From IMG/VR virus record IMGVR_UViG_3300010206_000020, positions 1 to 51,331 of that record: 51,331 bases of DNA; one strand, given 5' to 3'. The DNA comes from a virus. Its lineage: Duplodnaviria; Caudoviricetes. Below, in pieces: positions 2,962-47,869 of the stretch (positions within the stretch are counted from its first letter, which is position 1; every line of letters starts with the position of its first letter). The notes beneath the pieces are model-generated. The model made no database searches. It was not told the origin of the DNA and saw only the letters and a program-made list of their open reading frames with translations. A program made the translations under genes and the position numbers.

Positions 2962-3597
2962 TCACGCGAACAGCCCGCCGCCAAGCAGCGCTTGGCGGCG
3001 TTGCTGTTCAGCAGCGGCCAAGCTGGCGCGCGCCTGCGCCGCATTGCTCCCCTGCACCGCGAACATCGCCCCGAGATCGAGAGCCGGCGGAACGGCCGGC
3101 GGTGGCACGAACGCCGCTGATAGCGGCGCGGACGCGTCGGCCATCGCCGGCGTTGCGCCTGGCGCCGGCGCAACGCCGGCCAGTTCCTGCGCTTTCCCGA
3201 GCCGGTTCGCCCAGCCGTGCCCCGCTTCCGGGTTCGCCGCGCTGTAGCCCGCCGGGCGCTCGTACATCATGCCGGCGCGGACGGCCGACGCGACGTCCGG
3301 AGCGGCGCGCAGCGCGTCCCCCGCCCGCTTCTCGGTCGTGTTCAGCTCGCGGTCGAGCCAGCCGAGCTGCGTATCGAGCGCGTTGGGGTCCTGGCCGGTC
3401 GAGCGGGCGAAGTCGTAGAGCCCGGACAGCCGATCGCCGCGCCACTGGAAAACGCCGCGCGCGGTGCCGTTATCGCCGACGGCGTCGGTGCGCAGGCCGC
3501 TTTCCTGCACGCCGTGGCCGACAAGGGCGGCCGCCTGGTGCGGCTGGTAGCCGCGTTTCAGCAGCCATTGCATGGCGTATTGAACATTACCGGCCAT
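2962..3597 (-). CDS. Phage tail lysozyme-domain (Phage_lysozyme2-like) virion/ejection protein
   Basis: QAAALVGHGVQESGL..GDNGTARGVFQW..R motif; last gene of the virion operon; ends GGLFA. Confidence 0.85.
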   Translation of the reverse strand: MAGNVQYAMQWLLKRGYQPHQAAALVGHGVQESGLRTDAVGDNGTARGVFQWRGDRLSGLYDFARSTGQDPNALDTQLGWLDRELNTTEKRAGDALRAAPDVASAVRAGMMYERPAGYSAANPEAGHGWANRLGKAQELAGVAPAPGATPAMADASAPLSAAFVPPPAVPPALDLGAMFAVQGSNAAQARASLAAAEQQRRQALLGGGLFA

Positions 3598-6535
3598 CGC
3601 CGTTCTTCCTCGTGATCGCGCTCTTGACCGGATCGTCCTCGGGCTTCGCCGTCAGGATCTCGGTCAGCGTCGAGGCCTCGTTGCCGAGATAGGCCTTGGC
3701 GGTCCGCGCCAGCGCCGCCCGGTTCGCCGGGTTGCCTTCGCGCAGCAGATTGGCCGCCAACTCGGGTTCGAGCAGCGCGCGATCGAGCAGCCGTTCGACG
3801 GCATCGTTCTGCGCTCCGCGGACCGCGCGCCGGGCCACGACTGAGCCGAGCGCGGTCAGCATGAAGCCGAGCGACGTCTGGCCACGCTTGTAGGCGTAGA
3901 ACCGGCTTTGCAGCGTCTCGGGCGTCAGCACCTGCGAAATGCTCTGCGCGGTGCCCGAGGTGTTGGTGGCCTTCGCGCGTGAGCGCAAATCGACGTTCTG
4001 CAGCTCGTCGGCGATCCGCCGGACGTTCTGCAGGTGCTCCGGATTGTCGCGGTACAACCGCTCGGCGACGGCCGCGTTCGCGGGGTTGTCGAGAAAGTTT
4101 TTCAGGCGGTTCGGCATCCACGGTTGAGTGCCGTCGAGCGTCCGCGTCGTCTCCCCGTTCGACCGCGACTTTGCCTGCATCAGATCCCAAAACGATTTCC
4201 GCGCACCGGCGACAGCGGCCGGGTCGTTGTTCACAAACCCCAGCAATTCGTCGGCCGCCTGTGACGGGTTCTTGGACGCCAGCACGCCCTTGATCGCGTC
4301 CTGCGCGCGCTCGTCGCCGTACTGCAGGTATTTGCCCACGGTGCTGACGCCGCGCTCGTCGCCCGGCTGGCCGTAGTCGCGCACGGTCTGCTGCTGCCGA
4401 CCCTGCGCGGCGGCTTCCGCCTCGCGCGCCGCGGTCGCCGCATCCAGTTCCTGCCGGAGCCCCGGAAAGCGGTCGATTTGCTCGCCGTGCGCACCGACGA
4501 AGTCGCGAATGCGCTGCGCGCTCGACGTGTCGCCGCGCGACAGCACCTCGTCGCGGATCGCAGCTCGGGTCTGCGGCGTGTCGGCCTGCGCGAATAGCCG
4601 GTCCATCGCTTCCGGGTTGACGAAGCGCCCGGCTACCTGATCGTCGCGCAGCCGCGGCCGCCCGCCCTCACGCACGGCCAGCGCGTCGGCGACGGGATCT
4701 CCGGGGCGGCCGAACGCCTCGGCCTCGGCGAACTTCGCCTGACGGGCGGCCGCGAGCGCCTGCTGCTGCTCGGGGGTGAGGTTTTGCCCGACGAACCGCT
4801 CGACCGCGTCGCCGACTTGGCTCATGACGCGCGCGGCGTTGCGCCCGCCGTTCTCCGCCCGCGGATCGGCCAGCGCAGCGCGCTCGCGGCGGCTCAGCTC
4901 GGACAGCAGATCCGTTGCTTCCTTCATGTCGACAGGCTCGGGCGCCGGCGGCGCGCGCATGATCGGCTGGCCGTCCGGGCCGAGCACGCCGGTTGGCGTC
5001 GGCGCTTCCTCGACCGGCGCCAGGCGCTGCACGCGCGCCAATAGGCCCTCCGGCAACAGGCTGCGCTCCGTCTGCGTCAGGTTGGCCGTGGCGCCGTCCA
5101 CAGCGGCCGCCAGCTCGCCCCCGTCGATCGGCTCGCGCGCGATGTCGGCATTCGCGTAGGCGGCCTCGGTGCGATCGCGGGCGGTCTGGCGCGCGTCTTC
5201 AAGCGCCGTCCGGACGGTGTTTCCGCGTTCGCCCGGCGTGGTCGTCGGCGTGAGCCCCGCGGCGGCGCGCGCGGCTTCGTCCTGCGCGTTCGTGGCCTGA
5301 ACCGTGGCGTCGCTCAACCTTCGGTTTCGTTCCAGCTCCAATTCTGCGCGCAGATCCGCCGGGTTGCCGTCGGGCGCGTTGCGGTTCATGGCCTGGTCGA
5401 CGGCCGCTGTGTTCTCGGTCCGCCGTTCGGTGAAGCGCCCAGCGTTCGGGCCGGACTGCCGGCCGTATTCGAGCGCGGCCAGGCCCGGGTCGCCCGTGCG
5501 GTCGGCGACGCTGTCCTTGAACCCCGGAATGACCGTTTCGACACGGCGGCCGCCCGTGATTGCGTCGACCAGCGCCTGTGTGTCGATCGGCTGGCCGTCG
5601 ACCTTCGGCAGCATGTCGGCGTTGTTCGCGAGCCGGTCAACCACCGTGTCGGTGACGGTCTGGTTGCTGAATTTGTCGGGCCGGAAAACGGCGGTCGCCA
5701 CGTCCTTGACCGGGCCGCCGACCATGCGCGCCGCGCCGAGGCTTGCGGCGCCGCCGAGCGCGCCGAGGATATCGAGCGTGTTCGCCACCGCGCCGTGCTC
5801 TTTGGCGCCACCAGCGCGCGCCAGCTCGCCGGCCACGGCCGCGCCGCCGCCGGCGGCCGCCGCGGTCGCCATCTCTTTGCCCGCGAATGCGCCCGGGTTG
5901 ATCGCCGCCGGCTCGACGAACATTCGCGCCAGCGTCGGCAGCTCGCGGGCCGCCTGAACGCCCATGCGTCCAGCCCGCACCGCGGCGCCGACCGGCAGCG
6001 CGGCCGCGCCGATCTCCTCGGCGCCGCGCGTCAACATGCGCTCGGTTGCCGTGCTCGGCGGCCGGACGTCCGGGATGATGCCGCCCAAGCGCAGCAACTC
6101 GTCGAGCGACGCCGAGCCGCCGACCGGCTTTTCCGCGACCGGAAGCCCCGCCAGCGAAAGCCCGGCATTCACGGCGTCGACGGGCAGGCCGACGATTTTC
6201 GTCAAACCGCGGCGGATGCCGGCCGGCACATAGGCCGCTTGGTCGCCAACCGCCGACAGGGTCGCGCCGCTGTTCATCACCGCGGATTTCAGTGTGTCCA
6301 GCCAGGACGGCTGCGGCGGGTTGGCGGCCGCGCTGAGCGCCGCAACGTCGGCCTTCGCGCGCGCATCCATCACCTCGGGCTGTTGCGCCACCGCGCGGTC
6401 CGCCTCGGCGGCGAGCGCGGGCAGAGCCGGAGCGGCAGGCGCCGGCGCGGCCGACAGGATCTCGGACACTTCCGCGTCCGTCGCGTCGTCGGGAACGGCG
6501 ATCGAGCGGCCTTCGAACTGAACGAGGCGCGTCAA
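3587..6535 (-). CDS. Large internal virion/ejection protein (~980 aa)
   Basis: TTG start at 6535 overlaps the upstream TGA with GGAGG upstream; Ala-rich helical protein at the usual podovirus position. Confidence 0.7.
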   Translation of the reverse strand: MTRLVQFEGRSIAVPDDATDAEVSEILSAAPAPAAPALPALAAEADRAVAQQPEVMDARAKADVAALSAAANPPQPSWLDTLKSAVMNSGATLSAVGDQAAYVPAGIRRGLTKIVGLPVDAVNAGLSLAGLPVAEKPVGGSASLDELLRLGGIIPDVRPPSTATERMLTRGAEEIGAAALPVGAAVRAGRMGVQAARELPTLARMFVEPAAINPGAFAGKEMATAAAAGGGAAVAGELARAGGAKEHGAVANTLDILGALGGAASLGAARMVGGPVKDVATAVFRPDKFSNQTVTDTVVDRLANNADMLPKVDGQPIDTQALVDAITGGRRVETVIPGFKDSVADRTGDPGLAALEYGRQSGPNAGRFTERRTENTAAVDQAMNRNAPDGNPADLRAELELERNRRLSDATVQATNAQDEAARAAAGLTPTTTPGERGNTVRTALEDARQTARDRTEAAYANADIAREPIDGGELAAAVDGATANLTQTERSLLPEGLLARVQRLAPVEEAPTPTGVLGPDGQPIMRAPPAPEPVDMKEATDLLSELSRRERAALADPRAENGGRNAARVMSQVGDAVERFVGQNLTPEQQQALAAARQAKFAEAEAFGRPGDPVADALAVREGGRPRLRDDQVAGRFVNPEAMDRLFAQADTPQTRAAIRDEVLSRGDTSSAQRIRDFVGAHGEQIDRFPGLRQELDAATAAREAEAAAQGRQQQTVRDYGQPGDERGVSTVGKYLQYGDERAQDAIKGVLASKNPSQAADELLGFVNNDPAAVAGARKSFWDLMQAKSRSNGETTRTLDGTQPWMPNRLKNFLDNPANAAVAERLYRDNPEHLQNVRRIADELQNVDLRSRAKATNTSGTAQSISQVLTPETLQSRFYAYKRGQTSLGFMLTALGSVVARRAVRGAQNDAVERLLDRALLEPELAANLLREGNPANRAALARTAKAYLGNEASTLTEILTAKPEDDPVKSAITRKNGDGR

Positions 6536-9471: not shown

Positions 9472-9920
9472 GCGCCCCGTTTTCGCGTAACGAAATTCCC
9501 CACGGGCTCAAAGCCGAAGTGCCCTAGCAGGCGCGTGGTTCTATCCGTCGTCAGCCGGTTGTCGTTGCCGCCGGTGCTCTCGGTTGCGCCGAGACGGTCA
9601 CTCCAACGACAAAATTCGGCTATCAGAAGCGCGGCGGCCCGAGTGCCGCGATAGTCGGGGTGAACAAACGTACCACAAAGCGTGGTGAAAATGCCATCCG
9701 AGAAATCGAACGCCGAGATCGAGGCCTGCAATACGCCGGCCACCGCCCCTCGGTCGTCGCAGAAGAAAAACGTCGGATTGGCGGTTTTCAGGTAGGCTCG
9801 GAACGTCCTCCGGGCCGCGGTCTCGCTGAACGGCCGGTGCGGGTAGCTCTCCAACGCGCAGGCGCGCGCCAGCTCGACGAACGTGTTTTCCTCGCATTCG
9901 AGCGGCAGGCGGACGAACAC
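9468..9920 (-). CDS. GNAT-family acetyltransferase
   Basis: FVHPDYRGTRAAALL acetyl-CoA motif and GFEPVG; GTG start at 9920. Confidence 0.75.
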   Translation of the reverse strand: MFVRLPLECEENTFVELARACALESYPHRPFSETAARRTFRAYLKTANPTFFFCDDRGAVAGVLQASISAFDFSDGIFTTLCGTFVHPDYRGTRAAALLIAEFCRWSDRLGATESTGGNDNRLTTDRTTRLLGHFGFEPVGNFVTRKRGA

Positions 9921-9921
9921 G

Positions 9922-12006
9922 CTAGGACCCCTTTTCCCCGGCGAAATGAACCGCGGCCGCGCCGATCTTCTTGTACCCGGCACCGTTGCCCTTGAAGCGG
10001 AGCGAAATGTGGGTGCTGCGCGCCCCGTAGCCGACCCGCGGCAAGGCGTATGTGGTGCCGTCGATAACGGCCACCTTCTCGACCGCTTTCAGGTTCGTCG
10101 GGTCGAGAGCGGCGCTGACTGTCCACGAGCCGACGCAGGCGACGTCGATCGCGCTGAATACTTTATCCACAGCGGGCGTTTCGGCGTCGAGATACGGCGT
10201 CCACAGCTCCGGCTCGGTCGCGTCATATTGCGGCGTCGAGCCGAACCCGCCGTAGCTATAGATTTTGTCGCCCGAGCGCAGCACGACGTTCCGCTTGAAA
10301 ACCTGCGCGCTGTCGATCACCAGCGGTGCGCCGCCGGCGGTCGGTTTGTAGGTCGACCATGCGCTGATCTTCGATCCGGTGAAGAAGCTGAAAACGAAAA
10401 TCTCGTCGGCGAACACCAGCCAGAAACGGCCGTCCGACGGCTCGATCAAGCCGATAACTTCGCTGCGCTGCTTAGCCGTCAGCGCCCTCAATTTCGCGAC
10501 CACAAGCGGGTCGATCGGAATGCCGACGTCAGACGTCGAAGCCGCGTTCGACGCGTCGCGGGCGCGCAGCGATCGAACGCCACTTTCGTCGAGGAAGAAC
10601 AGGTCGTTGTCGCCGAACTGCGTGACGCTGCGCGGGCTGATCGTGCCCATGTTGTACAGCGCCTGCGCGGCCTTGTTGTTGGCCGGGTCGGGGTCGACGA
10701 ACCAGATTTGAATGACGCGGCTGGAAAAAACGACGATGTACTGCAGATACTTCGCGATCGCGAGCAGCGTTTCCGAACCGGCCGCCTCCGTCGACATATC
10801 GATAAAGCCGGCGCCGACGTTGCCCGTCGTGTTGAAGCCCGTCGGCGCTCTGACGCCCGAGAACACCAGGGACGAGGACGCCGCGACATACACTTTCGAG
10901 CCGACCGTCTTCGCGAACGTGCCGGACTGGTAGGCCCCGGCGCTGAGCGCCGCGCCGTTTGCGAGCACAATTCCGGACGAAGGCGTGACCACGAGGCCCC
11001 GCAAAACGCTGGTCACTACGGCGTAACCGTTCGCCGCCGCCCCGGGGCCCGCCGCCAGGATATTGACGCGCGAACCGACAGCCGTCGCCACGTACTCGGG
11101 GCTCGACGAGTAGCCGTTGATCGCCTCGGCGATGGCCTGCGCCGTGAGCGCGTTGCTGGTGCGCCAATCGACCGGCTCGCCGATGATCGAGACGCCGTTG
11201 ACCGTCAGATCGGACAGTTGCGACGGCAGCGGCCCCGCGCCGCCGGAAAGCGCGCCGACGCCGGACACGGCCGCGTCTCCCGTCACAGCGACGCTGATGG
11301 ACAGGCCGTTCGCCGTATCGTCGAACGCCGCGGACGAGATCAACACCGCGGCGCCGGTCGAGATCGCCGTGTAATCCGGGGCCGACGTGACGGCATTGAT
11401 GGCCGCTGCGATCGCGGCGGCCGTCGTGGTGTTGTTGCCGGTGTGCTGAACCGTCCCGACGTGCAGCGGAACGCCGTTGATCGACACCGAAAACCGATTG
11501 CCCGTGCCGGCCGATCCGCCGGCCACGGTGAATGAGCCGGTCGCGGGCGTCGCGGCTTGGATACCGCCGCCGACGACGCTGAACGACGCCCGCGCTCGAC
11601 CGTCCTGCCAATCTGAGATCCGGGCGCCGTCATAGAAGTGATAGATCGTGCCGTCGACGAACTCGCCGGCGGCGTAAATCTTGCCGGCGAAAAGGTCCGT
11701 CGACAGAACGCGATTGAGCGCCGTGGCGCCGTCCGGGTGCTGCAGCCGTTGATACGCGACGCCCTTTGGCATCGTCGGCGCAGCGTTGTGGCCGAACACC
11801 ACGAGCGACGTTGCGGACGCCGCGAGCCCGACGGTGGAGCCCGCCGGCAGGTTGTACTCCTCGACGAACTCGGCGCGCTGCTCGAACTCGCCGCCCCGGG
11901 TAATGTGGCCATCAACGGCGCGAATGGCACAGCCGCCCGGCAACAGCTCCGGCATCCGGCGCGCGTCGAGCCCGCCCTTGAAATCGCGCAGCCAGATCGT
12001 GCTCAT
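9922..12006 (-). CDS. Tail nozzle / packaged-DNA stabilisation protein
   Basis: Starts MSTIWLRDFKGGLD; beta-rich, ~690 aa; follows the adaptor gene with an ATGA overlap. Confidence 0.7.
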   Translation of the reverse strand: MSTIWLRDFKGGLDARRMPELLPGGCAIRAVDGHITRGGEFEQRAEFVEEYNLPAGSTVGLAASATSLVVFGHNAAPTMPKGVAYQRLQHPDGATALNRVLSTDLFAGKIYAAGEFVDGTIYHFYDGARISDWQDGRARASFSVVGGGIQAATPATGSFTVAGGSAGTGNRFSVSINGVPLHVGTVQHTGNNTTTAAAIAAAINAVTSAPDYTAISTGAAVLISSAAFDDTANGLSISVAVTGDAAVSGVGALSGGAGPLPSQLSDLTVNGVSIIGEPVDWRTSNALTAQAIAEAINGYSSSPEYVATAVGSRVNILAAGPGAAANGYAVVTSVLRGLVVTPSSGIVLANGAALSAGAYQSGTFAKTVGSKVYVAASSSLVFSGVRAPTGFNTTGNVGAGFIDMSTEAAGSETLLAIAKYLQYIVVFSSRVIQIWFVDPDPANNKAAQALYNMGTISPRSVTQFGDNDLFFLDESGVRSLRARDASNAASTSDVGIPIDPLVVAKLRALTAKQRSEVIGLIEPSDGRFWLVFADEIFVFSFFTGSKISAWSTYKPTAGGAPLVIDSAQVFKRNVVLRSGDKIYSYGGFGSTPQYDATEPELWTPYLDAETPAVDKVFSAIDVACVGSWTVSAALDPTNLKAVEKVAVIDGTTYALPRVGYGARSTHISLRFKGNGAGYKKIGAAAVHFAGEKGS

Positions 12007-13377: not shown

Positions 13378-13400
13378 GTAACCTTCTCCCTCGCGTGAAA

Positions 13401-13423
13401 GGCTTCGCGGCGAGGCCGAAGCC
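13401..13423 (-). terminator. Hairpin after the capsid decoration gene
   Basis: GGCTTCG...CGAAGCC stem followed by TTT on the minus strand. Confidence 0.4.
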
Positions 13424-13437
13424 CCGCCGCACGCCGC

Positions 13438-18571: not shown

Positions 18572-20203
18572 TTAGAAACCTCCGGCAGCTTTCTCGGCGG
18601 CGCGCTCAGCTGACCATTTATCGTTCTTCTTCATCCACGCCAGCGTCCCAAACGCCGGCCCCGCAGTCTTCTTCGGCGCCGCGTTGGCTCTAACCATCGT
18701 CTGCAGCAGCCGGCCGAAGATGCCGAGCGTGTCCGGCCACTCGTCGTGCAAGCCGTTCGGGAACGCGAGCAGCTCGTTAATGGCGCGCTCAACCCACGGC
18801 TTGCCTTTCGGCCAGAACACCTTGCCCATCGCAAAACGGCCGATGATCGGTTGCGCCCGAGCGACCTTGTCGCCGATCATCGGCAGCTCGCGCATGTTGA
18901 TATACGCCTCGCGCTCGTACATGCGCTTGCGCAGGAACGGCCCAATAGACTTGGTGATATGGTCGCGCTCAGCGCCCCACAGGATCGGCTTGTGGATCTG
19001 CGCCATGTCTAGCATGGCTTCAACTACGCGGTCGGTCGGTTGCTTCCGCCAGTAGCAATCGAGAATATACAGATTGCTCTGCGCGTCGACACCGGCGGCG
19101 ACGAGCAGCGAAGGGTCATTCCGCTCTTTGGCTTCCAGCGCGTGGTCCGAAGCGCAATAGACCCGCAGATTGTCGGGCGTGTCGTCGTAGTAGTTGACGT
19201 TCTCGCGCTTAAACAAATCGCCGTCGAGCGCGGACGGCCGCCCCTGGTACAGCGCCGCGAAGCCGGTCGGGTCGAGCGCCTGCATTTCCTTGAGATAGGT
19301 CAGGTCGAATTTGTCCGGGCCGTCCGGCCACAGCGGTTGCCCCGGCTTTCGACCGAGCGGGTCGTTCTCCTCGGCGATCGCTGCCATTTTGATGATCTTG
19401 ATACGCTTGGCGATCTCACGGTTGAAATACGGGTTCTCCGGGTCGGTCAGCCGCCCGATCGGGTCGTCGGCGTGCCAACGCGTGAACGTCATGATCACGA
19501 GCTTGCGGCCCTGCCGCCGAGTTAGCGCGACGCGCGTCAGCCAGTTCCAAGCCTGATCGCGGATCGCCTGGCTGGCCGCTTCCTTGTCATCCTTGATCAG
19601 GTCGTCGACGATCAGAAGATGCGCGCCGCGCCCGGTCAGTGCGCCGCCGCGGCCGACGAAGAACAGCAACCCGCCTTTCGTCGTTTTCAGCCGGTCTTTG
19701 GCCCCGCCGCCGCGCACGAGCCGCACCTCGGGGAATACCTGCTTGTAGGTGGGGCTGTGCATGATCGCGCGGACGTTGTCGCCGAAGTCCGCGGCAAACT
19801 CGTCGCTGTAGGTTGCGACTACGACGTTCTGATCCGGGAAACGCCCCGCGAACCACGCCGGCAGCTTGCGCGACACCTGTTCGGACTTGCCGTGCCGCGG
19901 CGGCTCGATCAGGATCAGGAACTCGATTTTCCCCTTCACCACTTCTTCGATCACGCGTGCGGTCGCGTCGTGGTGGCGAGCGTTCTTGTAGCTCGATCGG
20001 TCGGGGTCGTTCGGCGCTTCCGGATCGGGCGAGGTGTACTTGATGAACGGCATGAACCGCTCGCGAGCCTCGCGCGCCATCGCCTCGCGCCGCAGCAGCG
20101 CGACTTGCTGCGCGAGCTGCGAAACGCCGTCGTCCTTTTTGTTCGGATCGACGAACCCATAGCGCTTCCCCGTCATCGGGTTGATGCTAGTCGCGCGAGG
20201 CAT
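18572..20203 (-). CDS. terL: Terminase large subunit
   Basis: Walker A PPRHGKS, Walker B LLIVDD, YQGRP, nuclease motif FPNGLHDEWPD. Confidence 0.93.
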   Translation of the reverse strand: MPRATSINPMTGKRYGFVDPNKKDDGVSQLAQQVALLRREAMAREARERFMPFIKYTSPDPEAPNDPDRSSYKNARHHDATARVIEEVVKGKIEFLILIEPPRHGKSEQVSRKLPAWFAGRFPDQNVVVATYSDEFAADFGDNVRAIMHSPTYKQVFPEVRLVRGGGAKDRLKTTKGGLLFFVGRGGALTGRGAHLLIVDDLIKDDKEAASQAIRDQAWNWLTRVALTRRQGRKLVIMTFTRWHADDPIGRLTDPENPYFNREIAKRIKIIKMAAIAEENDPLGRKPGQPLWPDGPDKFDLTYLKEMQALDPTGFAALYQGRPSALDGDLFKRENVNYYDDTPDNLRVYCASDHALEAKERNDPSLLVAAGVDAQSNLYILDCYWRKQPTDRVVEAMLDMAQIHKPILWGAERDHITKSIGPFLRKRMYEREAYINMRELPMIGDKVARAQPIIGRFAMGKVFWPKGKPWVERAINELLAFPNGLHDEWPDTLGIFGRLLQTMVRANAAPKKTAGPAFGTLAWMKKNDKWSAERAAEKAAGGF

Positions 20204-20615
20204 TCGACGTCTTCTCCATGCGTTCCATGATGCGATCGAAACGCTGATCGATACGGTTGCCGAGCGCATCCATGCCGCGTTCGAGCCGCGTTACGACAAG
20301 CTCGAAACTACCCTTTCTGACAAACTCGTCGCGCGACCACGTCTCGAAATCCTGCACCTTCTGCCGGATCGCCGACGCAACCTCGCCGAACTCGCGCCGC
20401 GTCGTGTCGATCTTGTCGTCACGCTCGCGCTTGGCCGCGTCTATCTTCTCCGCGTGGTCCTCTTTCACTTCCTGAACCGCGGCCATGAAGTCTTTCCGGA
20501 TCTCCACTTCCGATGCCGACACAGCGCGCGTGATCTTCACCACCGCCGTAATGACGGTGGCGATCAGACCAACCACGGCGACGATCAGCATGATGGTCTG
20601 ATATTCTACGGCCAC
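20187..20615 (-). CDS. Membrane-anchored coiled-coil protein (lysis cassette)
   Basis: N-terminal TM segment then a charged coiled coil. Confidence 0.6.
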   Translation of the reverse strand: MAVEYQTIMLIVAVVGLIATVITAVVKITRAVSASEVEIRKDFMAAVQEVKEDHAEKIDAAKRERDDKIDTTRREFGEVASAIRQKVQDFETWSRDEFVRKGSFELVVTRLERGMDALGNRIDQRFDRIMERMEKTSNASRD

Positions 20616-28139: not shown

Positions 28140-28613
28140 TCAATCGAAGATGCCGGCGCCTGGCGCGGCGATCGGCGCCGGTTCGTGGTCAATCACCTTC
28201 GCCGCGGCCATGCGCTCGGATAGCAGCCGCTCCGCCTCCGCGAGCAGCTCCCGGACCTTCTCCGCCGGCATTTCCGCCAAGTCCTCGGGCGACAGCGCAT
28301 TGCCGCCCGCGATGCCCGACAGCTGAACCAGCGCTTTCGCGGCCATGCCGCGCGTTGAGCCCTTCTGCAGTTTGTCACTCGCCAGCTCTATTAGCACGCC
28401 GACGCCGATTTCAGCGCCTTCGGTGCGCAAGCGGTGCTGCGCCTGGCGCCTGATCTCCTCTTGCACCTCGGGCCGCTGCAGCGCCTGCGAGGCGCGTTTT
28501 TCCGGCGACGCGTAGCCCGCGCGCGTCGCCGAATAGACCTTATCGCCGGTTCGCGCCATTTGCTTCGCAAACTCCCGTTCCATCGGTGTAATCGCGCCTT
28601 TTTTGAGCTTCAT
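28140..28613 (-). CDS. terS: Terminase small subunit
   Basis: TPMEREFA......SATRAGYA.....ASQALQRPEVQEEI HTH typical of TerS; ends GIFD. Confidence 0.75.
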   Translation of the reverse strand: MKLKKGAITPMEREFAKQMARTGDKVYSATRAGYASPEKRASQALQRPEVQEEIRRQAQHRLRTEGAEIGVGVLIELASDKLQKGSTRGMAAKALVQLSGIAGGNALSPEDLAEMPAEKVRELLAEAERLLSERMAAAKVIDHEPAPIAAPGAGIFD

Positions 28614-30105: not shown

Positions 30106-30115
30106 GTGCGGCGCC

Positions 30116-30367: not shown

Positions 30368-30425
30368 CCGCTACACGTTGTTAGTTGCCTTTGTCGGCGT
30401 GTTCGCCCTCGCCTGCCTAGTCTAA
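30360..30425 (+). CDS. 21-aa hydrophobic micropeptide
   Basis: MPDRYTLLVAFVGVFALACLV with GGAGG at 30346-30350. Confidence 0.5.
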   Translation: MPDRYTLLVAFVGVFALACLV

Positions 30426-30443
30426 TCAGTAGGAGCGAACGCC

Positions 30444-31779: not shown

Positions 31780-31857
31780 ACGGCATACATTCCGCCGCGT
31801 ATGCTATGGGCCGCTCCCGTGACCAGGGAGCGGCCCATAGCATGTCCGGACGCCCCG

Positions 31858-32622: not shown

Positions 32623-34887
32623 TCACGCGAACACCCCTTCGTCCGTCTGCATTACGTATGATAGCAATGGCATACGATTAGCCTTTTTGCCGACGGTGGC
32701 CACCCTCACCCGCCCCGCCTTGACGAGACGAGACCACCCCGCCTCGACGTCGTCGATCGGGTACAGCCCCAAGACGTCAGAGCGCTTCCGCAGGACCCGC
32801 GGGGCGAAGCTCCGGGAGTTGGGCGCCGACGACAGCGCCACCGGCTCCGCCTCGCTCCCAGCCTCGACCACGGCCGCCAGCAGAGCGTCGTCGATCACGT
32901 CCGCCATGTCGCGCGGTCCAGCACCACCACCAGCGCCAGCAAAACCAGCCCCACCCTTGGCCGAAGCCTGGCTTTGAGCACCACCCTCCGCGTCGTCCTC
33001 GATCACGTCGAAATCGTCGGTGCCGAGCGTCTTGCCGGACACCATTTCAAACGCGCCGGCGTGCCACCGCAGCATGAACGCGTCGCCCGCGGCGCCGTAG
33101 TTCGCTTTGCGGTTTTCGAGCCTGCGGAACGGCCCTGTGCCGTCCTTGGTGGCGTGCTGCAGGTACAGCCGCGAACGGACCGACGCGTGCCAGGCCGTGG
33201 ACCCGGACGTGCCGTCGCCGCCGACCGCCTGGCCCGCTTTCGACGGGTGGCCGAGCGCGAGCACGGCGCCGCCGATGTCCTGCGCCAGCTTGCCGAGACA
33301 GGCCTGCACGAACTGCCGGACTTGCGAGCGGTCGATTTCACTGCCGGCGAACGTGTCGGCGATCGTGTCGACCACGACGACGGTTGCGCCCCACGCTGCG
33401 GCGTCGTCGCGAAGCTGCTGCCAAAGCGCCGAGCGTTTCATGACGCCGGTGGCGCGATCCCACGAGCACAACAGGTTGTCCATGTATTTGCGCGAAGCGA
33501 TGCGCAGGACGTCGTTGACGTCGGCCATCGTCACGCCGAGCGCCTTGTTGATATCCCGCTGGCGCAGGTTCAGCTCGTCCTCGCTGTCCTCACACAGGAA
33601 CATCATGACCCGGGACTGCGTCGTCCGGCGGCCGAGGAACGGTCTGCCGAGCGCAACGCACGTCATGGCCTGTTGCGCGAGCAGCGTCTTGCCGACGCCG
33701 CCCTGGCCGGTCAACAGCGTCACCTCGCCATCGGGGACCATGTTGGCGATCTTCCATCGCCGGACGGGCGGCGTTGTGCCTTCCCACTCGTTCGGCTGAA
33801 CCCATTTGATCGTGACGGGCTCGGGCGCCGGCGGCGCGTCCTTCGGGAACAGTCCTTCCGGCTCGTCGGGCAGCACGTCGAAGAACGCGTCGGCGCGCTT
33901 GAACTTCCCACCGCTCGTCTCCTCGGCCAGCTCGTACAGCCAGGACGCGCCGCGCCTGAACGGCGGCTTCATGCGGCGCCAGTCGGCCGCCACGATGTCG
34001 GGGTCGTTCTCGCCGTCCTGCCACCGCTCGCACCAGCTGGCGAAGATGTCGAACGCCTCGGGCTCGTTGTCGGGGAGCGCGGCCTTGATCGCGTAGCCGA
34101 AATCGCGGTAGGCCTCGCGCGAACCGAACGCCGCCGAGCTGTTAGGCGTGGCGGCTACCGCGGCCCGGACCTTTTCGAGGTCGCCGCGCAGTGACGCCTG
34201 CGCGATGTCCGTTGTTGCGCCTTCGGTGACGATCGGCGCGGTGTTCGGCAGGATCTGGCGCAGCTCGGCCATGAACGCCGCCAGCTGCTGCGGCGTGACG
34301 ATCGGAAGCTGGTCGACGTGGCAGAGCGGCGTCGTCCAAACGTAGGGCTGCAGCGTGACCGGGTGAACGCCGCGCGCGACGAATTGGCGGCCGGTCGACA
34401 GGCACTCGACGCGGTCGACGCGGCGGCCTTCGTCGTTGACCGGGCCGAACTCGACGCGGCAATACAGCACTGGCTCTGTGACGCGTATCAGATAGAGCGC
34501 CTTCGGCGCGCGGCCGATCCGGACCGGCGTGGCGCCGAAATGCGTCATGCTGGCGATCATGATCTTGCCGGCGCAGGCCTGGTCGAGCGTGTCGGCGTCG
34601 ACCGCCACGATGTCGAGCGGGCCGCCGGTCATGATGCCGACGCCGGCGCCCATGTTTTGCCAGCGGCCGAGATCGCGCGCGTCGGGCTCGGGCTGGCTGA
34701 GCCAGTCGTAGCCGTACCAGCCGTTCGCACCGCGGACGCCGACTGCTTTGCCGCGGCTGTCCTGTTTGGTGCCGACACGCTTAAATAGCGAGGACCCTTC
34801 GGAGATCGCCGCATCGGGCGGGATGATCGGAACGAGGCGCGTGTAGCCGAGCGCGGCGAAATCGGCGAAGGTCTGCGGCTGTGTCAC
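32623..34887 (-). CDS. Primase-polymerase / PriCT-2 / RepA-type AAA helicase
   Basis: VAVDAD and QFVARGVHP (Prim-Pol); Walker A GQGGVGKT, VVVDT, GHPSK, SGSTAW; ends GVFA. Confidence 0.9.
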   Translation of the reverse strand: MTQPQTFADFAALGYTRLVPIIPPDAAISEGSSLFKRVGTKQDSRGKAVGVRGANGWYGYDWLSQPEPDARDLGRWQNMGAGVGIMTGGPLDIVAVDADTLDQACAGKIMIASMTHFGATPVRIGRAPKALYLIRVTEPVLYCRVEFGPVNDEGRRVDRVECLSTGRQFVARGVHPVTLQPYVWTTPLCHVDQLPIVTPQQLAAFMAELRQILPNTAPIVTEGATTDIAQASLRGDLEKVRAAVAATPNSSAAFGSREAYRDFGYAIKAALPDNEPEAFDIFASWCERWQDGENDPDIVAADWRRMKPPFRRGASWLYELAEETSGGKFKRADAFFDVLPDEPEGLFPKDAPPAPEPVTIKWVQPNEWEGTTPPVRRWKIANMVPDGEVTLLTGQGGVGKTLLAQQAMTCVALGRPFLGRRTTQSRVMMFLCEDSEDELNLRQRDINKALGVTMADVNDVLRIASRKYMDNLLCSWDRATGVMKRSALWQQLRDDAAAWGATVVVVDTIADTFAGSEIDRSQVRQFVQACLGKLAQDIGGAVLALGHPSKAGQAVGGDGTSGSTAWHASVRSRLYLQHATKDGTGPFRRLENRKANYGAAGDAFMLRWHAGAFEMVSGKTLGTDDFDVIEDDAEGGAQSQASAKGGAGFAGAGGGAGPRDMADVIDDALLAAVVEAGSEAEPVALSSAPNSRSFAPRVLRKRSDVLGLYPIDDVEAGWSRLVKAGRVRVATVGKKANRMPLLSYVMQTDEGVFA

Positions 34888-38980: not shown

Positions 38981-39205
38981 TCAGTCGAATATGCTGCTCG
39001 CAGCGGGGGGCGGTGAAGGTTGCTCGGCTTCCGGCGGTGACGGGAAAGCCGCTTCGATCGCGTCGTGCTCGGTGGCGCCGGTAAACACGAACGTCTCGCC
39101 GCCGTGCAGGATTTCCAACGTCAGGTGCCCGCCGGGCGTGTAGGCGTACAGCGCCAGGCCCAGCTCGGGCCGCGCCGCGCGCAGGTCATCCAAAGATCGA
39201 CGCAT
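38981..39205 (-). CDS. Hypothetical protein ending SIFD
   Basis: Compact beta domain, Pro-rich linker, terminal SSIFD. Confidence 0.65.
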   Translation of the reverse strand: MRRSLDDLRAARPELGLALYAYTPGGHLTLEILHGGETFVFTGATEHDAIEAAFPSPPEAEQPSPPPAASSIFD

Positions 39206-39386
39206 CGGCGTTTGCTTTCTTGGGTTGCCTTCCGAGCGCTTCGCGCAGCAGCTGGTCGATCGTGCGCGCGAGCGAGCTGTTGTCGACTGCGCAGCGGCGG
39301 TCGAGCTTCGCGCGCAGGTCGTTAGCCAGCCAGATTGAGGTCCGGGTTTTGGTCGGCGGGACAGCCGCCTTCTTTCTCGCGCCCAA
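39186..39386 (-). CDS. Ribbon-helix-helix (CopG/Arc-like) regulator ending SIFG
   Basis: RTSIWLANDLRAKLD......SLARTIDQLLREAL; GGGAG RBS before TTG. Confidence 0.7.
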   Translation of the reverse strand: MGARKKAAVPPTKTRTSIWLANDLRAKLDRRCAVDNSSLARTIDQLLREALGRQPKKANADASIFG

Positions 39387-39454: not shown

Positions 39455-41722
39455 TCAGTCCTTGCGGTAGCGTTTGCCGATAAAGCCGCTCGCGGTGAGC
39501 GGTAGGCCCTCCGCCCACGCCGGAAGCTGGCAAATCAGGTCGGTGAAGAAACGGAGATCGGCCTGCCCGCGCGGCAGCTCGGCGATCAGTTCGTCGTGGA
39601 CGTGGCCGACGATCGGGTAGTTGTTCGCCTCGGCGAGCTTGATCCCTTCCGCCAGCAAATCGCGCGCGATCGCCTGTACGATGTTCTCGAACGCGAGCCC
39701 GCCATACAGCGCGAAGCGCACGTATTTCCGCGTCACGCTATCGACGCCGAGCGCCGTCGCGGACGGCTTCGCCTTGCTCTCGATCTTCGCCAGGCCCGCG
39801 CGTTCAAGATGCTCTGCGGTGGTCCGCAGCATCACCTCGGCGGTGTCCTCGCCTTTGCGTTTCGCCCACACCTGTTCCGACAGCCGCGGCTTGCCGTAGG
39901 CCAGGCAGCGGCCGGACGGCAGGCGGCACCACAGGAAGCTGCGCGCGACCAGATAGGTGCATTTCATCACCTGAACCTTGGCGCCCGGGTTCTCGATCGC
40001 CTCTCGAATGCCGTCCTGCAGCGCCGGCCATGCCCCGGTGATCGCCGGGTGCGTCGCGCGCCAGCCGATCTTGACCAGCTCAGCGGCCAGCCAGGCCTTG
40101 CGTGAGAGCTGCAGTGTCGTCGCCTCGCCGCGCTTCAAGCACTGCTCGTATCGCCGCTCAGCGGCCGCCCTGCGCTCGTCGCTCGCGGCGGACCAAACCG
40201 GGTCATAGACGGGCTCGATCTTTAGGCTGTAGTTCCGCGCCATCGATCGGAAAGCGCCGACGCCGCCCTGGTATTGCAGCGACAGCTCGGACACCTTGCC
40301 AACCTGGCGCCGCGGGTCCTTTTTGTTCAGCAGCTCCGTCGTGGTGTCGAAAATGCCGGCGGCGGCGCGGCGGTACAGGTCGGGCAGGTTCGGGTCGGCG
40401 ATCAGGTCGAACATCGCCTGAACCTTCCAATCCTCATTCGCAAACCACGCCGCGACCGCGCCCTCGATCCCCGAATAGTCCGCGGCGATCAGCTCGTGGC
40501 CAGGCGCCGCCCAAATGAACGAGCGCAGAGCGTCGGCGATCAGGTGCAGCGGCTTGCCCAGCTCGTCGCCGTAGCAGAAGCGCAGGTAGGTCGGATCGGC
40601 GAAGCTGAACGCCTCGAACAGTGCTTCAAGGTTCAGCGCGTGCTTTTCGACGAGGTCGCCGTAAACCTTGCGCGGCCGTGGCAGGTTGTGCATCTGCGCG
40701 CCGATTGAGGACCAGCGGCCGGGGCCAGCGGCGTGGTACAAGAACGCGCCTCGGACGCGGCCGCCTGCGCCGGCGCGCGCCAGGAAGGCTTTCAGTTTGG
40801 AGACGCTGCTTTTGGCCGCGGTCTGGCGCAGTTCGAGCACGCGGCGGACGTGAGCCGGCAAATCTTCGGCCTCTAGCAGCTCCTCAATTTCGGCCTTCGC
40901 CGTGCTCGGGATCGGGACGCCCTGCCCCGTCACCCAATCACGGATTTTCGTCACCTGCGAACAGGCCGTAACCTTGCCGCCGGTCGCCGCGTGCATTTCC
41001 AGATCAAGCAGCGCCTTCGCGCGCTCGGCGATCAGCAGCGCGGCGCGAGCCGAACGAACATCGATCCGCAGACCGCGATCGTTGATGCGCTGGTCGATCT
41101 GATAGATTTCTTGTTCGGCGGCTGACAGCGGCACCATGCGCGCCGCGGCGCCCGCCTCGGCTTCCACGTCGTCGTCGCAGTAGTCGTGAAACTCCTCGAA
41201 TTTGTCCGGGTAGTCCTCGGGCTCGTTGAAATACAGCCCCGGCGGTTCGCCCTTTTTGGGCCGTCGCGGCACGGAGAAAAACCGGATCAGCGCCGAGCCG
41301 GATTTGTTCTTTTTCACGGGCAGATCGAGCGCGGCGCCGAGCCCGTCGAGATCGCGCGGCAGGCTCATGGCGGCGGCCGTCGCCGCGGTGCAAACGAACT
41401 GCTCGTTGCTCACCTCGGGCCAGCCGCAGCGCGGCGCCAGGACCATCTGCCACAGCAGCCGTTCGAAGCTGGCGTTGTGCGCCAGGATCAGCCCGCCGGC
41501 GCGGACATGCGCGGCGATATCGGCCGGGCACGGATCGGTGTAGCGCCAGCGCCGGCGCGGGCCACCGTTGATCTTGTAGCTGGCGAGCAGCGCCTTTGTG
41601 TGCGGCGACGCCATGTATAGATACGCGCCCGCCGTCTTGATATTGACGTCGCTGCGCGTTTCGAAATCGATTTCGAGCTGTGGCAGTGGCGGGCCGCCGT
41701 TGTGGCCGATCGGCGCGTTCAT
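39455..41722 (-). CDS. Phage DNA polymerase, family A, with 3'-5' exonuclease
   Basis: Exo motifs DFET, AHNASFE, YCDDDV; polymerase motifs ADYSGIE, RQVGKVSELSLQY, HVHDE. Confidence 0.95.
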   Translation of the reverse strand: MNAPIGHNGGPPLPQLEIDFETRSDVNIKTAGAYLYMASPHTKALLASYKINGGPRRRWRYTDPCPADIAAHVRAGGLILAHNASFERLLWQMVLAPRCGWPEVSNEQFVCTAATAAAMSLPRDLDGLGAALDLPVKKNKSGSALIRFFSVPRRPKKGEPPGLYFNEPEDYPDKFEEFHDYCDDDVEAEAGAAARMVPLSAAEQEIYQIDQRINDRGLRIDVRSARAALLIAERAKALLDLEMHAATGGKVTACSQVTKIRDWVTGQGVPIPSTAKAEIEELLEAEDLPAHVRRVLELRQTAAKSSVSKLKAFLARAGAGGRVRGAFLYHAAGPGRWSSIGAQMHNLPRPRKVYGDLVEKHALNLEALFEAFSFADPTYLRFCYGDELGKPLHLIADALRSFIWAAPGHELIAADYSGIEGAVAAWFANEDWKVQAMFDLIADPNLPDLYRRAAAGIFDTTTELLNKKDPRRQVGKVSELSLQYQGGVGAFRSMARNYSLKIEPVYDPVWSAASDERRAAAERRYEQCLKRGEATTLQLSRKAWLAAELVKIGWRATHPAITGAWPALQDGIREAIENPGAKVQVMKCTYLVARSFLWCRLPSGRCLAYGKPRLSEQVWAKRKGEDTAEVMLRTTAEHLERAGLAKIESKAKPSATALGVDSVTRKYVRFALYGGLAFENIVQAIARDLLAEGIKLAEANNYPIVGHVHDELIAELPRGQADLRFFTDLICQLPAWAEGLPLTASGFIGKRYRKD

Positions 41723-42063
41723 GCGAAGATCCCCGGCTCGACGCCGAGCGTGGCCACAGTGCCCGGTGCGAGCCGTAGCGTGCCGCTCGCGAAGCCGTCG
41801 AGGAGAGCGGCAACGACGGCCGCGCGCGGGTCGCGGCACTTCACGAGCCGCTTATGCCAACTGTGCAGTAGCAGCGCCCCTTTGTCGTGGTTGCAGCGGT
41901 AACAGCACATGACGACGCGGCGGCCTTTCAACCGGCGCGGCACGATATGGTCGCGGGTCGGCGCCAGCGGCTGGCACTTAAACCCGGTCATCGGCGCGCT
42001 GCAGTAAATGCAAGGGAGACCGCGGGCGAGATCGACGCGGTTGCGGGCGCTGCGGCCGGTCAC
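41719..42063 (-). CDS. HNH endonuclease (CxxC type) ending GIFA
   Basis: CIYC...TRDHIVPR......CCYRCNHDKG. Confidence 0.85.
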   Translation of the reverse strand: MTGRSARNRVDLARGLPCIYCSAPMTGFKCQPLAPTRDHIVPRRLKGRRVVMCCYRCNHDKGALLLHSWHKRLVKCRDPRAAVVAALLDGFASGTLRLAPGTVATLGVEPGIFA

Positions 42064-42464
42064 AGCATCGCCTCTTGCACCGCCGCAGCGGCGCCGTAGT
42101 AATTCGCCCGGTTCTCCGCCGCCGTCGCCCAGCGCAGGTTTTCGCGCCGGCAGTTCAAACTTTCGCCGTCTCGGTGATCGCCGATCGTGTGGCGCGGGCT
42201 CGGCTGGATTACGTGAGCGCGATGCAGAATTTCTTTGTGCAGAAACAGCCTCGTCTGAGGTCCCGCGCGGCCGCTGAGCCTGGTCGAGCGCGTCGCATAG
42301 GCCTTGCGCCCGTGCTTGTCGAACGTCACCGACCAGGCCCACTGCAGCGCCCACGCGTAGTCGATCATGTCGACGACGGCATAAATGCCCTCGTCGACAT
42401 TTAGCCAGATCCTGCCCGTCTCCGGCGGAGCCGGCCAGGTATTCGGGTCGAGGAAGTCAATCAC
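42060..42464 (-). CDS. HNH endonuclease (HNH_3-like)
   Basis: LFLHKEI...GDHRDGESLNCRRENLRWATAAEN. Confidence 0.85.
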   Translation of the reverse strand: MIDFLDPNTWPAPPETGRIWLNVDEGIYAVVDMIDYAWALQWAWSVTFDKHGRKAYATRSTRLSGRAGPQTRLFLHKEILHRAHVIQPSPRHTIGDHRDGESLNCRRENLRWATAAENRANYYGAAAAVQEAML

Positions 42465-42823
42465 CCGAAAATGCCCCCGTCGTCCGGGAGGGCGCTTTCG
42501 AATGGCTGATCAAGCTCGAAATTGCGATCGTCCTCGGCCATCGCGTCGGCGATCGCCGCGTCGGCGTAGTCCGTCTCGCTGCGCGCCATGCGCGCCGCCG
42601 GCGGCACACCCGAGGCCTCGTCGATCGCTTCGACGTAGTCCATATCGAGGACTTTCCGAATTGCTTCGCTCGGCGTCGTGCCGCGCTGCACCCGCCAGCT
42701 GTTCTTTGCGCCGGTCTGCATATTGGCCTGGTAATGATCCGTGCATTTCCAGAGCGTGAAGCCATGCAGGGCGCCGGTGGCGGCCAGCTCGTCGAGCCGC
42801 GCTACGATGCTGTCCGCGCTCAT
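42461..42823 (-). CDS. Hypothetical protein with acidic tail ending GIFG
   Basis: Coupled at both ends. Confidence 0.65.
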
Positions 42824-43125
42824 CCGAACACCCCCATGCCGAGCGCGTGGCAGTAGGTTTCGAGGATCGCCTGTTCTTCGGCGAGCTTGTTCTGGTCGGC
42901 AGCGCGTATCCGGACGATCGCGCGCAACGCCTTGACGTCGTAGCCGTTGCCTTTCGCTTCGGCGTACACGTCCTTGATATCTTCGCCGATCGTCGACTTT
43001 TCATCTTCAAGCCGCTCGATCCGTTCGATGATCGCCTTGAGCTGATCCTTGGCGAATTTCGTCGCGACTTGTTCCGGGCCGCTGTTGTCTCCCGCCACGG
43101 CGCGCGGGTTCTCTGCTTTTGCCAT
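42820..43125 (-). CDS. gapR: GapR-like (DUF2312) DNA-binding protein
   Basis: [41 protein letters not shown]. Confidence 0.92.
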
Positions 43126-43202: not shown

Positions 43203-43823
43203 CTAGCCGAACAGGCCGCCGGCGCCGGCGCCGGCCTTCGTGCTGTCCGGCGCGTCGCCCTCGTCCGGAATGGTCTCGGCCCATTTGTCGACGTCGACCC
43301 CGCCCCCGCCGCCGAGACGGTCGCCGCGCTCCGCCGATTGGAACATGGAGATCCCGAACGTCAGGCCCTTGCCCTTCTTCGGGTTGTCCCAAGTGAAGCA
43401 GTGCAGCACGCCGTAGCCGTAGCAGCCGCTCCACAGCTTCGACTTGTCGGTGATCAGCACCTTCTGCCGGTCGACCAGCGCGGGCCGATAGTCAGCCCCC
43501 GACTTGACGCGAATGAAGTTGTGACCCGGGAAGCCGGCGTGCGGTTCGCCCGTCTTCTTCGACTTGCCTTGCGGGCCGTCGCCGTCGAGGAACGGGCTGT
43601 GGATGATCTTATCCTTGATCATCTGCAGCGCCTTGTCGCCCCACTCCGCCTTCGCGGCTTCGACGGCCGCCTTTTCGTAGGGCGCCAGGCTTTCCGTCTT
43701 CGGGATCAGCAGCGAACACGTCCAGTTCTTGTTGCCCCACTCGTCCTCCTGCAGCTCGAACAGGCCGTTGACGAACGCCGCGCGCACCAGTCCAGTCTTA
43801 AAATCTTCCGATCTCGATCCCAT
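43203..43823 (-). CDS. Phage ssDNA-binding protein (DUF2815 / gp2.5-like)
   Basis: WTCSLLIPK, PFLDGD, WSGCYG, KGLTFGI..FQ...GDRLGG; acidic tail ending GLFG. Confidence 0.85.
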   Translation of the reverse strand: MGSRSEDFKTGLVRAAFVNGLFELQEDEWGNKNWTCSLLIPKTESLAPYEKAAVEAAKAEWGDKALQMIKDKIIHSPFLDGDGPQGKSKKTGEPHAGFPGHNFIRVKSGADYRPALVDRQKVLITDKSKLWSGCYGYGVLHCFTWDNPKKGKGLTFGISMFQSAERGDRLGGGGGVDVDKWAETIPDEGDAPDSTKAGAGAGGLFG

Positions 43824-47120: not shown

Positions 47121-47417
47121 TCAAGACAAATCTAAAGCCATTTCACCCGCGATCGCAAAATAGGCGGCGCCGTCAACGTAGGTGTCACGCACCGGCGCCG
47201 GCGACGTCGCCACGCGGCCGAGCTTGGTCAGCACCATGTCGAGCGCTTCCTGCTCGGCGGGCGTCAATTTGCGGCGCAGGTGCTTCCGGAAGACAGCCTT
47301 CAATTCACCCGCGCACGTCAGGTTCGCGTTCGGCGGCCCGTAGCTCGCCTCCCGGCCAACGCCGGTGATGCGGGCGCCCTCTTCCAAGATTTCTACGCGG
47401 ACCGGCTTTCTGCTCAT
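47121..47417 (-). CDS. DUF6378-like protein
   Basis: ILEEG..I....REASYG.P..N...MVLTKLGR......DTYVDGAAY. Confidence 0.75.
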   Translation of the reverse strand: MSRKPVRVEILEEGARITGVGREASYGPPNANLTCAGELKAVFRKHLRRKLTPAEQEALDMVLTKLGRVATSPAPVRDTYVDGAAYFAIAGEMALDLS

Positions 47418-47869
47418 GCGAACACTCCATCTGAACTAACAACTTCGCCGCGGGCCGCGGAGCGGCCGACGACACGGAAGACGCGAATTTCAGTTCGCGG
47501 GCGGTCGCTGTACCACTTCTCGACATGCCCGGACACTACCTGCTTGTCATCAACCCAAACGATCAGGTTGAGCGCGTCGGTCAGCTTGCCGTTGTTGTCC
47601 CAATCAGGCTTCACGCAGGGCCGGATCTCGCCGGCGAGTGCGGCTTTCCGCCACGCCTTGGACTTCGACGCAGGCACAGGTATGAACAGTTCGATTTCGA
47701 GGCGCACGGGACCGTCGAGCGGCGGCCGCCCGTTCATTGTCAGCTGCGCAGCGTACGCTAAGCGCCCTTCGTACGACACGGTCCGCTCGGGCGTGTAGGC
47801 GTGGCCGTCGGCCCCGCGCTTGACGCGCTCTTTCCCGCGGGGCGGCCCGGCCAATTCGATGTAAATCAC
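47414..47869 (-). CDS. rusA: RusA-family Holliday junction resolvase ending GVFA
   Basis: PRGKER, YTP, KPDWDN..K..DALN.IVWVDDKQVV. Confidence 0.9.
   Translation of the reverse strand: MIYIELAGPPRGKERVKRGADGHAYTPERTVSYEGRLAYAAQLTMNGRPPLDGPVRLEIELFIPVPASKSKAWRKAALAGEIRPCVKPDWDNNGKLTDALNLIVWVDDKQVVSGHVEKWYSDRPRTEIRVFRVVGRSAARGEVVSSDGVFA

Follow-up and report, generated by a model that had tools for sequence, protein, structure and literature searches.

The provirus analysed here, IMG/VR record IMGVR_UViG_3300010206_000020, comprises 51,331 bases and is the sole contig of its assembly; this whole stretch, with a G+C content of 62-72%, is called the window in the following. It harbours a prophage in which one short C-terminal peptide with a penultimate phenylalanine recurs on proteins of different function. 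As a host gene for an AraC-type regulator is located at one side and the genes for a tyrosine integrase and a Cro/CI-type repressor at the other, the prophage spans approximately 2.9-50.1 kb, with the minus strand holding nearly all genes (Table 1). A codon-bias gene caller trained on the long open reading frames of the window recognized 61 prophage genes; in these calls, which are our own, the stop codon, and hence the C-terminus, is independent of the choice of start. The strict motif [GS]-[ILV]-F-[GAD] precedes the stop codon in ten of the 61 genes, about one protein in six and all on the minus strand, at each of the ten stops at which a preliminary description of this DNA had placed it. 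The core of this tag consists of a small or acidic residue, I/V/L, F and then exactly one residue, and is preceded by a flexible linker.

Table 1. Features of the window and of the related integrative island L003; the C-terminal end is given for gene products.
Feature	Position	Strand	Family evidence	C-terminal end
AraC-type regulator, host gene	1760-2827			
Phage_lysozyme2 protein (211 residues), last gene of the virion/ejection block	2962..3597	minus	PF18013, E = 1e-25	GLFA
Lysozyme tail codons (stop codon 2962-2964)	2965-2976	minus		
Large terminase (TerL)	18572..20269	minus		GGF, Phe last; related, not the tag
Probable small terminase (TerS; 157 residues)	28140..28613	minus	Terminase_2 with 23 bits, under the cut-off; weak PHROG TerS matches	GIFD
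Primase-helicase (754 residues)	32623..34887	minus	Prim-Pol, PriCT_2 and AAA_25 (Pfam)	GVFA
Hypothetical protein (70-74 residues)	38981..39205	minus	no family match in Pfam or PHROG	SIFD
Hypothetical protein (66 residues)	39186..39386	minus	no family match in Pfam or PHROG	SIFG
Family-A DNA polymerase (755 residues)	39455..41722	minus	PF00476	untagged
HNH-like protein (114 residues with the GTG start at 42063; 211 at most)	41719..42354	minus	HNH_5, under the cut-off	GIFA
Hypothetical protein (120 residues)	42461..42823	minus	no family match in Pfam or PHROG	GIFG
Phage GapR (101 residues)	42820..43125	minus	PF10073, E = 2e-32, residues 25-96	GVFG, past the family fold
Protein binding single-stranded DNA (SSB), gp2.5-like (DUF2815/Enc34-type; 206 residues)	43203..43823	minus	PF10991, E = 1.6e-24; PHROG 112	GLFG, stop TAG
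RusA resolvase (151-167 residues)	47414..47917	minus	PF05866, residues 24-146 of 167	GVFA
Tyrosine integrase and Cro/CI-type repressor	48351-50006			
L003, small integrative island between host amidase and host EPSP-synthase genes	G003:C16, about 197-206 kb			
L003 integrase	L003:7054-8454			
L003 primase-helicase	L003:9887-12217			
L003 small open reading frames	L003:12733-13164 and 13161-13520			
L003 resolvase	L003:14640-15179			

Based on the density of the motif inside the proteins, 0.072 C-termini are expected to carry its strict form, in line with the earlier estimate of far below one, and the ten seen correspond to a binomial p of 4.5e-19. Phenylalanine occupies the penultimate position in 11 of the 61 prophage genes and each other position of the last six in 0-2. 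The host control consisted of 400 kb of Rhodopseudomonas pseudopalustris, the host of a close relative, with 340 called genes; none of these ends in the strict motif and two end in the loose form [ILVM]-F-x (Fisher p = 3.4e-9), while a penultimate Phe is found in only four. One of the two loose host matches is a Zn-ribbon (PF13453) protein of 87 residues (G003:C16:425750-426013; L032:5750-6013) with a doubled tag-like end, I-F-D occurring twice; the other is an exported DUF459/GDSL protein.

Judged from the coding sequences, selection acts on the tag peptide and not on the nucleotides: the residue classes are retained, whereas the codons, including those for the stop, differ. In orthologues from two related prophages, available for nine of the ten tagged families, the two core codons show 8 synonymous and 7 non-synonymous differences, and all of the latter stay within class (I/V/L/M, or F to Y). 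The residues flanking this core and the stop codon (TGA, TAG, TAA) are free to vary between orthologues, and the serine of the tag is encoded by AGC as well as by TCG. Five tagged genes, those with stops at 2962, 28140, 32623, 38981 and 43203, have no overlapping downstream start among the called genes. Shine-Dalgarno/ATGA coupling and a DNA repeat, both discounted already in the preliminary description, are ruled out by this variation of codons and stops together with the five tags without a downstream start.

The ten tagged proteins are indeed unrelated to each other, as had been claimed: upon removal of the tails no pairwise similarity is detected among them (best pair E = 0.086), which rules out paralogy. 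Equally, GapR and RusA extend past their family domains (Table 1), with the RusA tag sitting on a stretch of approximately 20 residues that follows the domain. In two host genomes (G003 and G002), GapR encoded on the chromosome aligns with the phage copy through the final residue of the host protein, but stops three residues sooner and lacks the tail, whereas the phage copy runs on into the tag. These alignments show the tail to be appended to folds that are otherwise complete, with GapR as the cleanest case. The proposed flexible linker is reflected in the 15 residues before the tag, among which the fraction of disorder-prone residues amounts to 0.68-0.75 compared with 0.55-0.57 in untagged proteins (Mann-Whitney p = 4.6e-7). 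The residues preceding the tag are also mildly acidic, with an acidic-over-basic excess that averages 0.73 in the last eight. Cumulatively, the tail is very probably a recognition signal at the level of the peptide.

The tag recurs in relatives, several of which were reached through the primase-helicase (78% identity in G001, 63% in a Bradyrhizobium prophage and 58% in the L003 island); in the phages, genes ending [ILVM]-[FY]-x were counted. Twelve of 58 genes are tagged in G001, a 97%-complete provirus that is a prophage of R. pseudopalustris DSM 123, and 11 of 63 in the Bradyrhizobium prophage. The cultured Rhizobium phage RHph_N65 has, in its deposited annotation, 15 tagged among 69 coding sequences, one of which is a doubtful open reading frame of 32 residues; in EBPR siphovirus 2 the tag is found on 11 of 76, nearly all x-V-F-x, and in the 20 kb examined of Ralstonia phage RpY1 on 4 of 29, including TerL and the SSB. 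Methylases belong to the tagged set of the relatives, and the same residue classes return in phages whose polymerases are 37-65% identical. When 57 tags are tallied by position, there are G 25, S 13, D 10 and N 5 two positions before the Phe (F-2), I 23, V 23, L 10 and M 1 at F-1, F 56 and Y 1 at the aromatic position, and G 19, D 15, A 14 and others 9 as the last residue.

Among orthologues the letters of the tail are often swapped with the format staying, as in the primase-helicase, where Phi-F-x (Phi, hydrophobic) is kept in four relatives (DVFN, SVFG, GIFD, PIFD). TerS orthologues end in DVFD (G001), SVFA (Bradyrhizobium prophage) and DIFE (RHph_N65), and RusA orthologues, among them those of the same three phages, in GIFA, GVFA, DIFG and GVFG. 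The three hypothetical proteins behave alike, with DIFD and SIFD for the product of 38981..39205, SIFG and PIFG for that of 39186..39386, and SIFG and SVFG for that of 42461..42823. These comparisons show that the tail has been kept through sequence turnover. It also outlasts gene replacement, as the gene at 9903-10421 of G001, at the same position as the HNH-like gene (41719-42063, just upstream of the polymerase) but non-homologous to it, ends in GLFA where the HNH-like product ends in GIFA. The lysozyme orthologues end in AMFG (G001), GLYG (Bradyrhizobium prophage, G002) and SLYG (RHph_N65, 'lysin A'), and a Gly-rich stretch instead of an acidic/Pro-rich linker precedes the tail; since Tyr in the tag is confined to this family, the lysozyme tail may be a look-alike, a different signal with its own reader.

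With respect to the gene labels of the preliminary description, lysozyme, primase-helicase, GapR, SSB and RusA are supported, TerS and HNH are below threshold in Pfam, and the ribbon-helix-helix label ('RHH') given to the product of 39186..39386 finds no support in Pfam or PHROG. The related Phe-last end ascribed to TerL is present: G-G-F (window 18572-18586) is shared with G001 and RHph_N65 and replaced by R-G-F in the Bradyrhizobium prophage, and TerL of Ralstonia phage RpY1 carries a Phi-F-x tail instead of the Phe-last end.

As far as can be read from the sequences, the tag is the peptide in which the phage's own gp2.5-like SSB ends at its C-terminus, and this SSB would be its prototype. 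The SSB alone is tagged across all lineages examined, and all 120 of its 120 closest homologues (55-100% identity) end in [GAF]-[LM]-F-[GSAE]. In a wider sample of the family, 150 representatives at 50% clustering, the ends are Phi-F-x in 69, Phi-F-x-x in 7, Phi-F in 10, Phi-P-F in 4, Phi-[ILM]-[GSA] in 10, acidic-aliphatic in 7 and other or truncated in 43. Within more distant phages that encode this polymerase, SSB and exonuclease a tail is shared as well, but it is a different one. In Klebsiella phage N133 the exonuclease, SSB, a methyltransferase and TerS, 4 of the 13 coding sequences in the 13.6 of 58 kb examined, end in acidic-x-L-[VI]; in Bordetella phage BPP-1 the end is [DG]-L-[VI] in 6 of 49 coding sequences, namely those for Bpm, exonuclease, SSB, bbp45, bbp15 and TerS.

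Sharing of the SSB tail was further surveyed in 80 of roughly 530 viral contigs matching polymerase patterns, with genes called by our own caller and 55 loci with an SSB left after dereplication. In the 12 loci with an SSB ending Phi-F-small, 39 of 306 non-SSB proteins share this class compared with 4.33 expected, where the expectation is the rate in loci with other SSB tails and the significance is rough, as the loci are interrelated. Aliphatic-ended SSB tails are shared by 8 of 217 proteins (2.75 expected) and F-terminal ones by 2 of 115 (0.8 expected), and in loci with an SSB ending D-F-L none of 127 proteins shares the tail. Sharing is thus not universal: it is strong in the clade of the window, weaker in some clades and absent in others.

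The type of tail tracks the phage lineage and not the host. Ralstonia and Bordetella both belong to the Burkholderiales, yet the tail is Phi-F-x in Ralstonia phage RpY1 and D-L-V in Bordetella phage BPP-1. As the tail type follows the lineage, a phage-encoded reader co-evolving with the tail is favoured. In tblastn searches, the only genes that all tag-bearing phages have in common are those for the polymerase, the SSB, the DUF2800 exonuclease and the SNF2 helicase, and the polymerase and the SNF2 helicase are untagged in every phage examined. A capsid or cargo-loading reader of the encapsulin type was rejected, since EBPR siphovirus 2 and RpY1 have structural modules without relationship to that of the window and share with it the replication module only.

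When the polymerase was co-folded with the full-length SSB, on alignments of 61 and 57 sequences, respectively, the model supported a putative binding of the tail by the polymerase. In three runs evaluated next to three controls the pair reached an ipSAE of 0.64 each time, the best control 0.41. The pair thereby passes the mark, which 58 of the 80 solved complexes and 2 of the 110 mismatched pairs attain, counts that are only rough with own alignments. The runs share at least 46% of their contacts with a partner pLDDT of at least 76. On the SSB side the predicted interface comprises residues 182-205 only, hence the tail, which is not folded back onto the SSB's own fold; on the polymerase side it comprises residues 118-133 and 194-204 in the exonuclease domain, 582-611 including a hairpin, and 658-669. 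L204 and F205 of the SSB are modelled in contact with polymerase residues 591, 593 and 598. Residue 598 is aromatic in 26 of 30 phages with a Phi-F SSB tail compared with 11 of 27 others, a weak hint of covariation with the SSB tail in a hand count of related phages, from which two gapped rows were dropped and in which six of the 'other' rows are near-identical.

The arrangement which we consider best in agreement with these observations, at a probability of about 0.5, is that the tip of the SSB has been copied onto approximately ten other phage proteins as a short docking peptide on a flexible linker and is read by the phage family-A polymerase as in T7. A single phage-encoded reader, most likely this polymerase, would receive the tail in a groove between the exonuclease domain and the conserved hairpin (residues about 589-611). 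Docking would gather the primase-helicase, SSB, RusA, GapR, HNH nucleases, small DNA-binding proteins and TerS at the phage replication forks, and the tagged proteins would swap with one another on the one site. Four candidate readers had been named in the preliminary description, the host beta-clamp, host pockets for the SSB tail, a protease and a phage hub protein, and only the last has gained evidence, through the identity with the SSB tip and the predicted polymerase complex.

That an SSB-type C-terminal docking tail can be shared with a helicase, as in T7, and that the bacterial SSB has such a tip is already known. In T7, the C-terminal tails of gp2.5 and gp4, both ending D-x-D-F in the T7 record, bind surface patches of the gp5 polymerase (excerpts of PMC12339929 and PMC8835902). 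The likeness extends to several features: a gp2.5-family SSB and a primase-helicase share a short tail, flexible and in part acidic, in which a Phe is essential, and the T7 reader is a family-A phage polymerase, the same class as the candidate reader suggested here by the model. On the other hand, T7 has two tailed proteins, while 10-15 (15-20% of the genes) are tailed here, including TerS, RusA, GapR, HNH nucleases and the lysozyme, and the polymerase of the window is distant from the solved ones. Among the solved structures in the PDB, a sequence and profile search yielded no comparable complex and one weak Pol I match.

The bacterial SSB C-terminus is likewise an acidic, aliphatic, Phe-containing tip on a disordered linker that serves as docking peptide in DNA metabolism, and the I/V-P-F end is represented by the four Phi-P-F members of the phage SSB family sample. 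However, bacteria have one tip with many readers, whereas here many proteins have one tip. In the host SSB the canonical I-P-F, with its final Phe, forms the C-terminus, and the phage tags have no Pro and one extra residue, which speaks against the suggested host SSB-tail-binding pockets as reader. In its format, a hydrophobic residue, an aromatic residue, any residue and the free C-terminus, the tag resembles the HbYX docking motif of proteasome activators, which has Tyr at the extreme C-terminus before a last variable residue and is read by the alpha ring of the proteasome. The aromatic residue of the tag is almost always Phe (Tyr in 1 of 57), and its context is DNA replication.

Several points weigh against docking to the polymerase. 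The co-fold reports a model confidence, with a margin of +0.23 over the best control where +0.20 was required, and it was an unrelated control that reached 0.41; the SSB was the only tagged protein and the polymerase the only candidate reader in these runs. Conservation of the predicted interface is 0.79 compared with 0.73 for the rest of the polymerase, a value that 937 of 10,000 random residue sets reach and that is not significant. The T7 tails have Phe last on a strongly acidic linker, whereas Phe is penultimate in all ten tags of the window and the linker is Gly/Ala/Pro-rich with its mild acidity; nor could the predicted site be mapped onto the basic patch of T7 gp5, the MAFFT alignment being unreliable, as motif C was misaligned. 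No role at the polymerase is obvious for the tagged virion lysozyme and a tagged PAPS-reductase-like protein, and the SSB of EBPR siphovirus 2 has three residues past the Phe. Finally, the L003 island has three tagged genes but no polymerase, and therefore the host or a helper phage would supply the reader there.

That the tail is a docking peptide for some other phage protein, be it the groove of the SSB OB-fold, the primase-helicase or the SNF2 helicase, or for several readers as with the bacterial SSB tip, we regard as less likely but well conceivable. The SSB, tagged in all lineages, and the SNF2 helicase, conserved and never tagged, would both fit such a role; L003 keeps a primase-helicase without the polymerase, and in a crystal of the Enc34 SSB the C-terminus occupies a neighbouring molecule's groove (excerpt of PMC5686142). 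In the co-fold, though, the tail of the SSB is predicted to choose the polymerase over the SSB's own fold.

Sliding clamps are the second class of hub to be weighed. The gp45 partners gp43, gp33 and gp55 of phage T4 carry clamp-binding motifs, and Mu MuC and Mor offer a further precedent for the tag as a minimal motif by which phage proteins active in DNA transactions would be tethered to the beta sliding clamp of the host. As with the tag, many unrelated proteins with one short hydrophobic L-F-type motif compete for one hub, the majority of the tagged proteins act on DNA, and L003 would need no phage polymerase. Phages also use clamp motifs to couple replication with other processes, and a motif as short as D-L-F is functional in Mor (excerpt of PMC12867686). 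When the tags are compared with positions 3-5 of the clamp consensus (same excerpt), the resemblance to its end consists in S/D at F-2, present in 23 of the 57 tags (25 have G), and in Phe, present in 56; position 4, L in the consensus, is the beta-branched I/V in 46 and L in 10. Positions 1 and 2 are missing from the tag, with Q at position 1 in 1 of 57 and only 8 tags hydrophobic at position 2. Every tag ends exactly one residue after the Phe at the C-terminus, while clamp motifs also occur at the N-terminus and internally (PMC12867686, excerpt), and the tail type tracks the phage lineage, as RpY1 and BPP-1 demonstrate, and not the host. The host clamp, proposed as a reader at the outset, has been weakened accordingly and is an improbable partner.

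The preliminary description had left docking and degradation side by side, of which the phage-wide tag on a flexible linker has stood, while no positive evidence for degradation has emerged. A C-terminal degron, read by a host or phage protease that would time the removal of early proteins, usually takes the form of a hydrophobic peptide exposed at the C-terminus and carried by a flexible linker, as seen here, and the single residue after the Phe suggests that a free C-terminus is read. Degrons of the ssrA type, however, end in two small, non-polar residues (Ala-Ala type), whereas the last two residues here are Phe with G/D/A in 48 of 57 tags or with another residue in nine. Tagged proteins such as SSB, helicase, TerS and the virion lysozyme are needed in bulk and late, the tail is invariant on the SSB (120 of 120 homologues), and proteases are conserved across hosts, yet the tail type shifts with the phage lineage. 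Degradation thus has little to recommend it. That there is no peptide signal at all, but a by-product of translational coupling, stop-codon context, a repeat or chance, is hardly tenable: at five of the ten stops there is indeed an overlap with the following start (ATGA/GTGA), by which A or G is favoured at the end of the last codon, and the motif was defined after being seen, but five tags are without a downstream start, third codon positions and stops vary, the residue classes recur in the distant polymerase lineages, chance would give the binomial probability stated above and host GapR has no tail.

In a wider reading, the tail might be a phage-encoded 'address code', a possibility that we put forward tentatively. 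Each lineage of the polymerase/SSB module would possess its own three-residue tail co-evolving with one reader and marking 15-20% of the proteome for one replication-and-packaging compartment; the marked set would comprise the terminase, the Holliday-junction resolvase, GapR, DNA methylases and perhaps the virion lysozyme. Small integrative elements without a polymerase, such as L003, would copy the code of the resident phage to exploit its machinery, and the free C-terminus, with its rule that Phe is followed by exactly one residue, would point to a peptide-recognition pocket of a new type. A common docking peptide would by itself provide a sequence-readable rule for the phage proteins cooperating at the fork, including several of unknown function as well as unexpected ones such as TerS and GapR. 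It would widen the two-tail paradigm of T7 to an organising principle for many temperate phages of alpha- and beta-proteobacteria, hint at how replication, recombination and packaging are physically coupled, and represent a natural orthogonal pair of tag and reader with lineage-specific versions. The preliminary statement that no such system has been described needs to be restricted in view of the T7 gp2.5/gp4 tail read by gp5; in full-text literature searches, supplements left aside, no description was found of one tail spread over 10-15 unrelated phage proteins, of lineage-specific tail versions or of the penultimate-Phe format.

The L003 island resides in the same Rhodopseudomonas genome as the full prophage G001. 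Its three tagged genes, among them both small open reading frames, end in PIFD, GIFG and GLFD, and no polymerase, SSB or structural genes are found on it. L003 may be a satellite that copies the tail of its helper.

In the window, a block of plus-strand genes at 28802-32163, including a DUF932 protein of 339 residues, is located between TerS and the primase-helicase and contains no tagged gene. The C-terminus of the polymerase (window 39455-39475) is a basic R-Y-R-K followed by D, E or the stop, and is kept in eight of eight phages including N133 and BPP-1. The polymerase gp51 of EBPR siphovirus 2 (L042:26691-29828) contains in motif B an insertion of approximately 290 residues, absent in all others aligned, which by its sequence looks like an intein.

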